NCBI RefSeq assembly: GCF_965641715.1
Contig: NZ_OZ282453.1
DNA length: 64,000 nucleotides
Source of the DNA: Escherichia coli
Lineage (GTDB): Bacteria > Pseudomonadota > Gammaproteobacteria > Enterobacterales > Enterobacteriaceae
Strand: one strand, 5' to 3'
Shown: in pieces, positions 1 to 7,966 of the stretch
Layout: each line of letters begins with the position of its first letter
Numbering within the stretch: the first letter of the stretch is position 1
Program-made: the position numbers and the translations under genes
The notes under the pieces: model-generated
Seen by the model: the letters and a program-made list of their open reading frames with translations, nothing else
Databases searched by the model: none
What the model was told of the DNA's origin: nothing

Positions 1-377
1 AATTAATGTCGGATTATTTTTTCCGCGTGTCGCTGGCGATGCAAAACAAAACGCTGCTTTTCTCCCTCGATGACACGCTGGTTAATAACGCCCTGCAAAC
101 ACTGAATAAAACCCGCCCGGCAATGGTGGATGTAATACCCACTGATGGCATCGTTCCGCTCTATATCAATCCACAAGGCGTGGCGAAACTGCTGCGTAAC
201 GAAACGTTGACCAGTCTGCCGAAGAATCTCGAACCGGTTTTTTATAACGCCGCACAAACTTTATTAATGCCGAAGCTGGACGCTTTATCTCAACAACCGC
301 GTTATGTCATGAAGCTGGCCCAGATGGAACCCGGTGCCGCCTGGCAGTGGCTACCCATAACCTGGCAGCCGCTATGA
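1..377 (+). CDS. yfaA: DUF2138-family protein YfaA, 3' portion; gene begins upstream of the window
   Basis: Frame is open from the window edge to TGA at 375-377 (C-terminal peptide ...LPITWQPL). Sits directly upstream of yfaT/yfaS as first gene of the conserved cluster; stop overlaps the yfaT ATG (ATGA). Confidence 0.7.
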
Positions 378-997
378 GGAACGGGCTGCTGGCGCTGATT
401 TGCTGGCTGTGTTGTGTTGTTGCCCATAGCGAAATGCTGAATGTCGAACAATCCGGGCTGTTTCGCGCCTGGTTTGTACGCATTGCACAAGAACAGCTCC
501 GCCAGGGGCCAAGTCCACGCTGGTATCAGCAGGATTGTGCGGGCCTGGTGCGATTTGCGGCGAACGAGACGCTGAAAGTTCACGACAGTAAATGGCTAAA
601 AAGTAACGGTTTATCTAGCCAGTATTTGCCGCCAGAGATGACGCTAACACCTGAACAGCGGCAACTGGCGCAAAACTGGAATCAGGGGAACGGGAAAACC
701 GGACCCTACGTAACCGCGATTAATTTGATTCAGTACAACAGCCAATTTATTGGCCAGGACATAAACCAGGCGCTGCCTGGCGATATGATTTTTTTCGATC
801 AGGGCGATGCCCAGCACTTAATGGTCTGGATGGGGCGTTACGTCATCTACCACACCGGAAGCGCCACGAAAACTGACAACGGAATGCGCGCAGTCAGTCT
901 GCAACAACTTATGACATGGAAGGACACCCGATGGATACCCAACGATTCCAATCCCAATTTCATTGGCATTTATCGTTTAAATTTTCTGGCGCGATAG
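374..997 (+). CDS. yfaT: DUF1175-family secreted protein with NlpC/P60-like Cys/His motifs
   Basis: ORF 347-997; start adjusted to ATG 374 ([12 protein letters not shown]..., 207 aa). N-terminal hydrophobic signal-like segment; DCAGLV and H-x12-H motifs resemble those of MepS in this same window. Confidence 0.8.
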
Positions 998-3900
998 CAG
1001 CGTGCTTGTCCCTGTCTCTTGTGGGAACAGGGCTTGCTAATGCTGATGATTCGCTTCCTTCCAGTAACTATGCGCCGCCCGCAGGGGGAACATTCTTTTT
1101 GCTTGCTGACAGCAGTTTTAGCAGCAGTGAAGAGGCGAAAGTGCGACTGGAAGCGCCGGGGCGTGATTATCGACGCTATCAGATGGAAGAGTACGGCGGC
1201 GTGGACGTTCGCCTGTATCGTATTCCTGACCCGATGGCATTTTTGCGCCAGCAGAAAAACCTGCATCGCATTGTGGTGCAACCGCAATATTTAGGCGACG
1301 GGCTGAACAATACGCTGACCTGGCTGTGGGATAACTGGTACGGCAAATCTCGCCGCGTGATGCAGCGTACTTTCTCTTCTCAGTCACGGCAGAATGTGAC
1401 TCAGGCATTACCCGAATTACATCTCGGCAATGCCATTATTAAACCTTCCCGTTATGTACAGAACAACCAGTTTTCCCCGCTGAAAAAATATCCCCTGGTG
1501 GAACAGTTCCGTTATCCACTATGGCAGGCTAAACCGGTCGAGCCGCAGCAAGGGGTAAAACTGGAAGGCGCATCCAGCAATTTCATCTCGCCGCAGCCGG
1601 GTAACATTTATATTCCTCTCGGCCAACAAGAGCCGGGACTGTACCTCGTCGAGGCGATGGTTGGTGGGTATCGGGCGACGACGGTGGTGTTTGTTTCCGA
1701 TACCGTGGCGCTTAGCAAAGTGTCAGGCAAAGAGCTTCTGGTGTGGACCGCGGGTAAAAAACAGGGTGAAGCGAAGCCCGGCTCAGAGATCTTGTGGACT
1801 GACGGTCTTGGCGTGATGACCCGCGGTGTGACCAATGACAGCGGTACCTTGCAGTTACAACATATATCGCCAGAACGTTCATACATTCTGGGTAAGGATG
1901 CTGAAGGCGGCGTTTTTGTCTCCGAGAACTTCTTCTACGAAAGCGAAATCTACAACACCCGCTTGTATATCTTTACCGATCGCCCGCTATATCGCGCAGG
2001 CGATCGTGTCGATGTTAAAGTGATGGGCCGCGAGTTCCACGATCCGTTGCATTCATCCCCCATCGTCAGCGCCCCGGCGAAGCTTTCGGTGCTGGACGCT
2101 AACGGCAGTCTGTTGCAAACCGTCAATGTCACGCTGGATGCGCGCAATGGCGGGCAGGGGAGTTTCCGCCTGCCAGAAAATGCCGTTGCCGGAGGTTATG
2201 AGTTACGTCTTGCTTACCGCAATCAGATCTATAGCAGTAGTTTTCGCGTAGCCAACTATATCAAGCCACATTTCGAGATTGGTTTAGCCCTCGACAAAAA
2301 AGAGTTCAAAACTGGCGAAGCGGTCAGCGGCAAACTGCAACTGCTCTACCCGGATGGTGAGCCGGTAAAAGATGCCCGCGTGCAGTTAAGTTTGCGCGCT
2401 CAGCAATTATCAATGGTTGGTAACGATTTGCGTTATGCCGGACGTTTTCCCGTGTCGCTGGAAGGCAGTGAAACGGTGTCCGACGCCAGCGGTCATGTGG
2501 CGTTAAATCTCCCCGCCGCCGATAAACCGAGCCGTTATTTGTTAACCGTCTCCGCCAGTGACGGCGCGGCGTATCGCGTCACCACCACCAAAGAGATCCT
2601 CATTGAACGCGGCCTGGCGCATTACTCTTTAAGTACCGCCGCACAATACAGTAATAGCGGCGAGTCGGTTGTGTTCCGTTATGCCGCGCTGGAATCTTCA
2701 AAACAGGTTCCTGTTACGTATGAATGGTTGCGTCTCGAAGACCGCACGAGCCATAGCGGAGAGCTACCGTCTGGCGGCAAATCCTTTACCGTCAATTTCG
2801 ATAAACCTGGCAACTACAATCTGACGTTACGCGATAAAGACGGCTTAATTCTCGCCGGGTTAAGCCATGCAGTCAGCGGTAAGGGCAGCACGGCGCATAC
2901 TGGTACGGTAGATATCGTGGCAGATAAAACGCTGTACCAGCCTGGCGAAACCGCGAAGATGCTGATTACCTTCCCGGAGCCAATTGATGAAGCATTATTG
3001 ACGCTGGAACGCGATCGCGTTGAACAGCAGTCGCTGCTATCGCATCCGGCAAACTGGCTGACGTTACAACGTTTAAACGATACTCAGTATGAAGCCCGTG
3101 TTTCAGTGAGCAATTCCTTTGCGCCTAACATCACTTTTTCGGTGCTGTATACCCGTAACGGTCAGTACAGTTTTCAGAACGCCGGGATCAAAGTTGCCGT
3201 TCCCCAGCTGGATATCCGGGTGAAAACGGACAAAACCCATTACCAGCCTGGTGAACTGGTCAATGTTGAATTAACCTCGTCGCTGAAAGGTAAACCTGTT
3301 TCTGCGCAGCTAACGGTAGGCGTGGTCGATGAAATGATCTACGCGCTGCAACCAGAAATCGCGCCGAATATCGGCAAATTTTTCTATCCGCTGGGGCGTA
3401 ACAATGTACGCACCAGCTCCAGTCTGTCGTTTATCAGCTACGACCAGGCGCTCTCCAGCGAGCCGGTTGCGCCTGGCGCGACTAACCGCAGCGAGCGGCG
3501 AGTAAAAATGCTTGAACGTCCACGGCGTGAAGAGGTGGATACCGCGGCATGGATGCCGTCACTCACAACCGATAAACAAGGCAAAGCGTATTTCACGTTC
3601 CTGATGCCTGATTCGTTAACCCGCTGGCGTATCACCGCGCGTGGGATGAACGGCGACGGGCTGGTCGGGCAGGGGCGTGCTTATCTGCGTTCGGAAAAAA
3701 ATCTCTACATGAAGTGGAGTATGCCAACGGTGTATCGCGTGGGCGACAAACCGTCGGCAGGACTGTTTATCTTCAGTCAGCAGGATAACGAACCGGTGGC
3801 GCTGGTGACTAAATTTGCAGGCGCTGAGATGCGCCAGACGCTGACGCTGCACAAAGGGGCGAATTATATTTCGCTGGCGCAGAACATTCAGCAATCTGGC

Positions 3901-7185: not shown

Positions 7186-7189
7186 TGCT

Positions 7190-7966
7190 ATGCGAAAGAT
7201 TTTTCTTCCGTTGTTACTGGTGGCGCTTTCGCCTGTCGCTCACAGTGAAGGTGTGCAGGAAGTCGAGATTGACGCACCGCTCTCAGGCTGGCATCCGGCA
7301 GAGGGCGAAGATGCCAGTTTTTCACAATCGATCAATTACCCGGCGTCGTCCGTCAACATGGCAGATGATCAAAATATCTCAGCGCAGATCCACGGCAAAA
7401 TAAAGAATTATGCTGCGGCGGGTAAAGTTCAGCAGGGCCGGCTGGTGGTCAACGGTGCCAGTATGCCGCAGAGAGTTGAATCCGATGGTTCATTTGCACG
7501 CCCTTATATTTTCACTGAAGGCAGCAACAGCGTGCAGGTCATCAGCCCGGATGGGCAAAGCCGACAAAAAATGCAGTTTTACTCAACGCCGGGTACAGGA
7601 ACGATTCGTGCACGTTTACGGCTGGTTCTCTCGTGGGATACGGACAATACCGATCTCGATCTCCATGTTGTCACGCCCGATGGAGAACACGCCTGGTACG
7701 GTAACACCGTGCTGAAAAACAGTGGTGCACTGGATATGGATGTCACGACGGGGTATGGACCCGAGATTTTCGCCATGCCAGCGCCAGTTCACGGGCGCTA
7801 TCAGGTGTATATCAACTACTATGGTGGGCGCAGCGAAACGGAATTAACCACCGCCCAACTGACGCTGATCACCGATGAAGGATCGGTCAATGAGAAACAG
7901 GAAACATTTATTGTACCGATGCGTAATGCTGGCGAGCTGACGCTGGTGAAAAGTTTTGACTGGTGA
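7190..7966 (+). CDS. yfaP: DUF2135-family secreted protein YfaP
   Basis: 258-aa ORF, ATG 4 nt after the yfaQ stop; signal peptide (LLLVALSPVAHS/EG). Confidence 0.85.
   Translation: MRKIFLPLLLVALSPVAHSEGVQEVEIDAPLSGWHPAEGEDASFSQSINYPASSVNMADDQNISAQIHGKIKNYAAAGKVQQGRLVVNGASMPQRVESDGSFARPYIFTEGSNSVQVISPDGQSRQKMQFYSTPGTGTIRARLRLVLSWDTDNTDLDLHVVTPDGEHAWYGNTVLKNSGALDMDVTTGYGPEIFAMPAPVHGRYQVYINYYGGRSETELTTAQLTLITDEGSVNEKQETFIVPMRNAGELTLVKSFDW

Follow-up and report, generated by a model that had tools for sequence, protein, structure and literature searches.

The yfa operon of Escherichia coli, a type II alpha-2-macroglobulin locus orthologous to Pseudomonas magBCDEF with a probable part in guarding the cell envelope

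What do five tightly packed genes of Escherichia coli, one of them encoding an alpha-2-macroglobulin, do in the cell envelope? The question is raised by the left end of a 64,000-nucleotide (nt) stretch of contig NZ_OZ282453.1 (RefSeq assembly GCF_965641715.1; the whole stretch is hereafter called the window), where positions 1-7966 carry, all on the + strand, the 3' end of yfaA followed by yfaT, yfaS, yfaQ and yfaP. Judged by sequence comparison, this is the E. coli type II bacterial alpha-2-macroglobulin operon, orthologous to magBCDEF of Pseudomonas aeruginosa: our tblastn searches, together with the protein sizes and COGs given in PMC3735191, map YfaA to MagB, YfaT to MagC, YfaS to MagD, YfaQ to MagE, and YfaP to MagF. 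The first-pass annotation, made from the letters of the window alone, had already proposed homology to mag with MagD as the macroglobulin; the orthology holds, with the correction that mag has a sixth gene, magA. Its further statement, that what mag does is still unclear, has in part been overtaken (PMC5764988, PMC12663445, PMC12282094). The operon as such is already described, annotated, and near-universal in E. coli, and the copy in the window is an ordinary intact member. Added here are the conservation of the YfaQ motifs, the finding that few segments of YfaS are as conserved as the bait, and the dependence of Escherichia on an upstream yfaS start. As to function, we hold it probable, with some reserve, that the operon encodes the E. 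coli Mag complex and that this complex guards the cell envelope from within the periplasm.

In YfaS, Pfam recognises the domains MG2 (2.4e-19), A2M_BRD, the bait-region domain (1.4e-16), A2M (3.4e-12), and bMG10 (7.5e-6), while a profile of YfaS relatives matches YfhM (ECAM; 1e-11), Salmonella A2M, complement C5, CD109, and TEP1. The motif C-x-E-Q occurs nowhere in YfaS, which has two cysteines only, one in the signal region and one, Cys1189, in the mature protein. When the family profile was run against K-12 YfhM with hmmsearch, the YfhM segment YPYGCLEQTAS aligned to the consensus YPYGGVEQTAS, and E. coli YfaS reads WGGVINTGS; since GCLEQ of YfhM thus lies opposite GGVEQ (most relatives) or GGVIN (E. 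coli), the thioester was lost at the homologous site, where Gly stands in place of the thioester Cys. The protein had been described from its sequence as a thioester-less alpha-2-macroglobulin, and so it is. Its bait corresponds to the MagD bait ANRSERG, the element NRSER being common to both. The sole direct repeat in yfaS (2293-2319, 2923-2949, and 3229-3255) encodes DK(K/T)x(F/Y)(K/Q)(T/P)GE at the starts of successive macroglobulin (MG) domains, and no tandem repeats were found in the region.

The start of yfaS deserves comment. The ATG at 931 has GGAAGGA 7 nt upstream, and an in-frame alternative ATG lies at 916. An in-frame ATG equivalent to that at 931 is present in 76 of 79 related loci, the overlapping yfaT codon being CGA in 76/76. 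An ATGA start at the yfaT stop, which would yield the 26-residue signal peptide reported for MagD, also exists in 68/76 relatives; Escherichia and Superficieibacter have ATAG there. By this comparison only the upstream ATG gives a signal peptide in the Escherichia/Superficieibacter lineage, where the yfaS start would thus depend on the ATG at 931. Read from this codon, the N-terminus shows by eye a hydrophobic core followed by ANA/DD, and also a lipobox-like IAAC at residues 22-25. The start chosen by the NCBI annotation pipeline PGAP in the nearest genome, a GTG at window position 1021, was rejected because the signal peptide would be lost. As a separate observation, IAAC (window 994-1005) is confined to Escherichia: Superficieibacter, Serratia, and Pseudomonas do not share it, and one Escherichia locus has Tyr in place of Cys25.

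The gene is intact in the window and flagged as a pseudogene in K-12 MG1655, as the first-pass annotation stated; what it called a split pseudogene is more precisely a gene with one nonsense codon (codon 1368, TGG>TGA), the K-12 gene being otherwise of the same length and co-linear, with 91 substitutions. Truncated or fused yfaS products of E. coli are also numerous in the protein database: products of 959 and 999 amino acids (aa) on dozens of contigs, a 1362-aa product in O157:H7, and YfaS-YfaQ fusions. These entries suggest either repeated independent inactivation, besides the K-12 nonsense codon, or assembly errors.

The layout of the genes is given in Table 1. The proposed co-directional packing was borne out in all its coordinates and overlaps: yfaT starts on the yfaA stop (ATGA), yfaS starts within the end of yfaT, the TAA of yfaS abuts the GTG of yfaQ at 5536 with no gap, and 4 nt separate yfaQ from yfaP. 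Such junctions may entail translational coupling and a fixed stoichiometry of the five products. A promoter scan gave one promoter-like site against 6.6 expected, with terminator-like sites at chance level, and is uninformative on transcript structure. In the nearest genome the genes are annotated as yfaA (DUF2138), yfaT (DUF1175), an alpha-2-macroglobulin family protein, yfaQ, and yfaP, between gyrA and rcsC.

Table 1. Position of the yfa genes and of the features discussed in the text (window coordinates, nt)
Feature	Position	Strand	Description
yfaA 3' end	1..377	+	last 124 codons and stop; runs off left edge, stop 375-377; DUF2138, MagB orthologue
yfaT	374..997	+	DUF1175, NlpC/P60-like; MagC orthologue
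yfaT/yfaS overlap	931..997	+	67 nt; contains the yfaS start codon of this lineage
yfaS	931..5535	+	intact type II thioester-less alpha-2-macroglobulin, 1534 aa; MagD orthologue
yfaS bait region	3472..3558	+	aa 848-876, 29 aa
Thioester-homologous position in yfaS	4132..4146	+	aa 1068-1072, GGVIN instead of CLEQ
yfaS codon 1368	5032..5034	+	TGG (Trp); K-12 nonsense site
yfaQ	5536..7185	+	GTG start, 549 aa, multi-domain, predicted periplasmic; MagE orthologue
YfaQ N-terminal domain	5605..6270	+	aa ~24-245; penicillin-binding / class D beta-lactamase-like fold
YfaQ SpoIID-like domain	6469..6894	+	aa ~312-453; lytic-transglycosylase fold
YfaQ C-terminal module	6961..7182	+	aa 476-549; HExxH = H520-E521-x-x-H524, nt 7093-7107; candidate zincin-like
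yfaP	7190..7966	+	DUF2135; MagF orthologue, MagA = paralogue

The four genes around yfaS encode, as had been stated, proteins of DUF families by Pfam: DUF2138 (YfaA), DUF1175 (YfaT), DUF2300 (YfaQ), and DUF2135 (YfaP). YfaT, YfaS, YfaQ, and YfaP begin, as the first-pass annotation saw, like secreted proteins, a basic n-region being followed by a hydrophobic core and a site of the A-x-A/S type (all by eye); the putative cleavage sites are AHS/E in YfaT, ANA/D in YfaS, TLA/E in YfaQ, and AHS/E in YfaP. Of the four secreted partners that it counted, three (YfaT, YfaQ, YfaP) therefore stand. The fourth, YfaA, hits Pfam DUF2138 at 1.8e-286 over its full length (NCBIfam PRK11410) and has an N-terminal transmembrane signal-anchor, as in MagB, so that by its sequence it is an inner-membrane anchor or scaffold. 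YfaT (Pfam DUF1175, 1e-57; NlpC_P60, a weak 1.5e-3) matches the solved structure of P. aeruginosa MagC, 7bk8, at E 2e-103 and about 77% identity. Its Cys55, His148, and His160, assigned by the motifs DCAG, QHLM, and YHTG, are invariant in 13 of 13 diverse homologues and stand where NlpC/P60 enzymes carry their triad; a passage of PMC10318531, which cites the MagC paper of 2021, classes DUF1175/MagC as an inactive, peptidoglycan-binding member of the NlpC/P60-like group. YfaP has no Cys, carries DUF2135 (5.6e-17) at aa 199-244, and shares 50-57% identity with the trailing copy of Pseudomonas and 37-45% with the leading one; its profile found noise only among PDB sequences (E >0.2), with no solved relative detected. 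Taken together, the Pfam, PDB, and synteny searches place the five proteins in the macroglobulin and Mag-type families.

YfaQ is a multi-domain protein. Its family is small (292 representatives among 1.84 billion proteins), and our alignment of 74 homologues (27-88% identity) contains 21 invariant columns. Pfam reports DUF2300 twice (aa 84-205 and 412-532; nt 5785-6150 and 6769-7131) and SpoIID at 1.3e-5; NCBIfam gave SpoIID_LytB below cut-off only, and nothing for the isolated N-domain or C-module. We rejected 'tandem DUF2300' as a structural description, because the two hits fall in different predicted folds, one PBP-like and the other in the SpoIID/HExxH region, and have no pairwise similarity (BLASTP E 9). 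The AlphaFold2 model built on the alignment of 74 homologues (mean predicted local distance difference test, pLDDT, 93.9; predicted template modelling score, pTM, 0.91) has fold matches to penicillin-binding proteins (PBPs) in the N-domain and to SpoIID in the central domain. In the N-domain, S60 and K63 (SxxK), at the start of helix 59-73, are found in 73/74 homologues, the remaining one being gapped; the second motif, S108-C109-G in a loop, has Ser and Cys in 74/74 and no Asn, the canonical form being SxN (or SxV); and the third, K195-T196 followed by W, F, or Y on strand 192-200, is kept in 73-74 of the 74, where the canonical form is KTG. Aligned by profile to a true PBP, the domain scores weakly (E 0.24). 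In the central domain EEYVARVLDRE aligns to the SpoIID motif, with the invariant Glu334 opposite a Glu of SpoIID (4rwr, E 4e-4). This Glu, in the EEY..V...E motif, we take to be the catalytic residue of SpoIID.

The C-terminal module is modelled as three short strands, a helix (512-526) with HExxH, and two further helices. H520, E521, and H524 are present in 74/74 homologues, E536 in 71/74, and E540 in 68/74. Against PDB sequences its profile matched MJ1213 only, at E 0.08, HExxH on HExxH; MJ1213 is, we presume, a selecase, that is, a minimal metallopeptidase. Aligning the YfaQ alignments with Staphylococcus aureus BlaR1 by hhalign gave nothing significant (8-9 columns around HExxH, probability <2%), and given this value no homology to the M56 family of BlaR1 is claimed. 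From sequence and model the module is thus a candidate zincin, which we offer as a lead only; alternatively, C452, C488, H520, and H524 could form a structural Cys2His2 zinc site. YfaQ was reported in 2025 to be transpeptidase-like and SpoIID-like, and its deletion in E. coli K-12 gave wider cells and an envelope/peptidoglycan phenoprint with a profile close to those of mepK, mepS, and nlpI mutants (PMC12282094). New here is that SxxK, S-C, K-T, Glu334, and the C-terminal HExxH are conserved across all, or all but one gapped, of the 74 homologues.

Is the operon more than a chance neighbourhood? An 8.3-kb stretch comprising it is matched in 5425 of 5426 complete E. coli genomes (best identity 99.2%) and covered to at least 80% in 5354 of them. 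The ratio of non-synonymous to synonymous substitution (dN/dS) is 0.02-0.13 for all five genes in comparison with E. albertii, E. whittamii, and Superficieibacter; the value for yfaS against K-12, distorted by the in-frame stop, was left out. Scanning one genome per species gave 371 YfaS relatives, of which the best 80 loci, a sample biased to close relatives, were compared: the order A-T-S-Q-P on a single strand holds in 80/80 wherever the flank allows, which agrees with the co-occurrence of the macroglobulin with its four partners stated in the first-pass annotation except that one locus (L068) is without the trailing P gene. Because of the low dN/dS, the constant order and strand, and the presence in 5354/5426 genomes, the operon is genuine and under purifying selection. 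Pseudomonas loci carry a leading extra P paralogue, and Escherichia, Superficieibacter, Serratia, and Edaphovirga have five genes. In L068, from Pseudomonas cichorii, no yfaP/magF is detectable past 16251 in spite of ample flank, and the leading magA-like copy is kept.

Between E. coli and Pseudomonas, YfaT is the most similar protein of the operon (68-77% identity), the others having 37-57%. E. coli YfaS is as distant from its Serratia/Yersinia homologues (54-56%) as from those of Pseudomonas (about 55%), which fits the patchy, transfer-prone distribution described in the literature. The G+C content of the operon, 52-59%, is slightly higher than that of the flanking DNA; together with the YfaT conservation and the YfaS distances this hints that the operon may have been acquired horizontally. 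Downstream, where K-12 has the ato operon (atoSCDAEB) between yfaP and rcsC, window positions 7967-8240 lack that operon and keep about 70 nt similar to the atoS 5' end (7992-8059, 78% identity); the same yfaP-rcsC junction occurs in 1536/5426 complete E. coli genomes, O157:H7 included. Elsewhere in the window, Rfam matches five copies of naRNA4 (of the REP, or repetitive extragenic palindromic, type) in two clusters, MicF upstream of the ompC region, one tRNA, and an L25 leader (11090-11280, 23068-23376, 14941-15034, 40311-40384, and 44100-44125).

If the operon indeed encodes a Mag complex, its parts could work together as follows. YfaA, a bitopic inner-membrane protein, would anchor and stabilise YfaS, a large secreted cage of many MG domains without a thioester, to which YfaP would bind as an accessory subunit; YfaT, with its NlpC/P60-like fold, would bind peptidoglycan and, together with YfaQ, tie the complex to the cell wall. 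A hydrolase entering the periplasm, be it a protease of the host or a competitor or a cell-wall effector of a type VI secretion system (T6SS), would then cut the bait of YfaS, which would change shape and hold the enzyme non-covalently, so that the peptidoglycan is protected. The orthology, domain content, thioester loss, catalytic-type motifs, bait, gene order, and purifying selection described above are those of the E. coli genes themselves; trapping, complexes, the role of MagB, peptidoglycan binding, and protection from effectors are known from P. aeruginosa, and by analogy would work in the same way in E. coli, while the chemistry of YfaQ and YfaT within the complex is what we infer. In Pseudomonas, MagD resides in the periplasm in association with the inner membrane and shows co-stabilisation with MagA, MagB, and MagF, MagB having a transmembrane helix (PMC3735191); it forms 1:1 complexes with MagA, MagB, and MagF (PMC5764988), and both its membrane localisation and its stability are MagB-dependent (PMC3735191, PMC5764988). 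When a site for tobacco etch virus (TEV) protease was engineered into the bait ANRSERG in 2018, the TEV protease was kept non-covalently after cleavage (PMC5764988). A CRISPR interference screen of 2025 found that mag protects P. aeruginosa from the peptidoglycan-targeting T6SS effectors VgrG3 and Tae1 (PMC12663445).

Several points weigh against such a guard. In 26 non-redundant homologues, aa 852-876 of YfaS, within the bait, form the second most conserved non-overlapping 25-aa window of the protein (0.85 vs a mean of 0.56). The baits of classical macroglobulins vary, which opens them to cutting by many proteases. To judge from the alignment, a strongly conserved bait is the opposite of what a broad-spectrum trap needs, and suggests one specific cutter, which may be encoded by the operon itself. 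None of the five proteins matched a PADLOC defence model, and the literature searched contained no experiments on the E. coli complex. The trapping was seen with the engineered TEV bait only, and was incomplete (PMC5764988). VgrG3 is a glycan hydrolase and not a protease, so that protection from it cannot be put down to the target cutting the bait. MagE was recovered in the cytoplasmic fraction and MagC was undetected in the complex (PMC3735191). Finally, that a yfaQ deletion has a phenotype in K-12, where yfaS is a pseudogene, implies a role of YfaQ independent of the full-length cage.

Some of these difficulties would disappear if the bait were cut from within the operon and not by the prey, YfaQ being a soluble, BlaR1-like sensor-protease, although we regard this as unlikely. 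Its PBP-like and SpoIID-like domains would sense peptidoglycan damage (exposed stem peptides, denuded glycan), upon which the HExxH module of YfaQ, or the Cys-His-His site of YfaT, would cut the NRSERR bait of YfaS; the cage, armed beside the lesion, could then hold any cell-wall hydrolase, glycosidases like VgrG3 included. Such a scheme would explain the conserved bait, the protection from effectors that are not proteases, and the processing of MagD from 165 to 100 kDa in vivo, which is lost in magB and magC deletions and altered in a magE deletion (PMC5764988).

The same observations bear on another proposal, namely that the operon is mainly a machine for peptidoglycan remodelling or repair, with YfaQ and YfaT as its enzymes and YfaS as a scaffold or regulator that an endogenous cut in the bait would activate; this we find doubtful but quite conceivable. 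It would parallel the pairing of type I macroglobulins with the peptidoglycan synthase PBP1c (yfhM adjoins pbpC in K-12), and it accommodates the YfaQ motifs and the YfaT Cys-His-His site, invariant or nearly so, the fold matches of YfaQ to PBPs and SpoIID, the highly conserved bait, the MagD processing, which occurs without an external protease, and the clustering of the yfaQ deletion with mepK, mepS, and nlpI mutants in a strain whose yfaS is a pseudogene. Yet the second and third PBP motifs of YfaQ are non-canonical, DUF1175/MagC is given as inactive and only peptidoglycan-binding in the passage of PMC10318531 quoted above, MagC and MagE form no stable binary complexes with MagD (PMC5764988), and enzymatic activity has been shown for none of the partners. 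It is quite improbable that YfaS serves chiefly as a colonisation factor that traps host proteases (neutrophil elastase, gut proteases) reaching the periplasm, as was first proposed for bacterial macroglobulins. The A2M architecture with its bait region, the cutting of the MagD bait by trypsin, chymotrypsin, and papain, and the reported spread of the family among host colonisers (both PMC5764988) are consistent with it, as is the attenuation of mag mutants in chronic infection models (PMC3735191); but most of the 80 nearest relatives belong to soil and plant Pseudomonas, the bait is conserved and not diverse, no thioester is there to hold prey covalently, and the sole clean phenotype so far is that against bacterial T6SS cell-wall effectors (PMC12663445). 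Scarcely credible, lastly, is the notion of the E. coli operon as a relic in decay that now does little. The K-12 nonsense codon and the many truncated or fused database entries point that way, and so do the fact that about 2% of genomes and certain sequence types lack yfaQ and the undetectable signal of a fusion of YfaQ to green fluorescent protein (PMC12282094). They are set against the low dN/dS of all five genes across Escherichia species, a cluster of intact YfaS with 40,950 member sequences, the presence of the operon in nearly all complete genomes, and the phenotype of the yfaQ deletion (PMC12282094).

Gram-negative bacteria possess two macroglobulin-based defences of the envelope, and the system matters as one of them, linked in Pseudomonas to surviving T6SS attack on the wall; the standard model strain, K-12, carries a natural mutation in yfaS. 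For strains with intact yfaS, residue-level handles are now available in YfaQ (S60, K63, S108, K195, E334, H520, E521, and H524) and YfaT (C55, H148, and H160), along with the conserved bait and the proposed correction of the yfaS start codon. The YfaQ cell-shape phenotype of 2025, published without mention of a macroglobulin (PMC12282094), is here tied to the macroglobulin operon.

How, then, does the yfa operon compare with known systems? Closest is MagABCDEF of P. aeruginosa (PA4492-PA4487), which has the same gene order, one-to-one orthology, a thioester-less macroglobulin, the NRSER bait, and a transmembrane anchor. The differences are that the proteins are only 43-57% identical, YfaT excepted at about 70-77%; that mag has six genes whereas E. 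coli has five, without the leading YfaP paralogue magA; that the former thioester motif is GGVIN in E. coli, where E-Q is lost as well, and GGVEQ in most relatives; that yfaS has lost the ATGA-coupled start kept by most relatives and relies on the ATG 63 nt upstream; and that GacA/Rsm regulation is known only for Pseudomonas mag. The type I macroglobulins YfhM (ECAM) and Salmonella A2M share with YfaS a homologous multi-MG architecture with a TED-like (thioester-containing) domain and are likewise periplasmic and associated with the inner membrane. Genetically, these are linked to PbpC and YfaS to YfaQ, both of which combine a penicillin-binding fold with a glycan-acting domain. However, YfhM belongs to a two-gene operon, has the LAGC lipobox of a lipoprotein, and carries an active CLEQ thioester, whereas YfaS, with its predicted Sec signal peptide, lacks the thioester and has four or five partners dedicated to it as well as a separate anchor protein. 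To SpoIID, which with SpoIIP and SpoIIM makes up a machine that degrades peptidoglycan in sporulation, YfaQ bears a weak similarity (seen by Pfam and under the NCBIfam cut-off) and adds the PBP-like and HExxH modules, and the yfa operon has no SpoIIM or SpoIIP homologue. Compared with the beta-lactam sensor-proteases BlaR1/MecR1 and the class D beta-lactamases, YfaQ is soluble and periplasmic, with its domains in the opposite order and a tiny HExxH module whose likeness to zincins in sequence is borderline (E 0.08 to MJ1213). With eukaryotic alpha-2-macroglobulin, C3-C5, CD109, and TEP1, finally, YfaS has the MG, bait-region, and TED-like domains in common, but it is a bacterial and periplasmic protein without a thioester, its bait is conserved and not hypervariable, and the literature describes it as a monomer bound 1:1 by accessory proteins.

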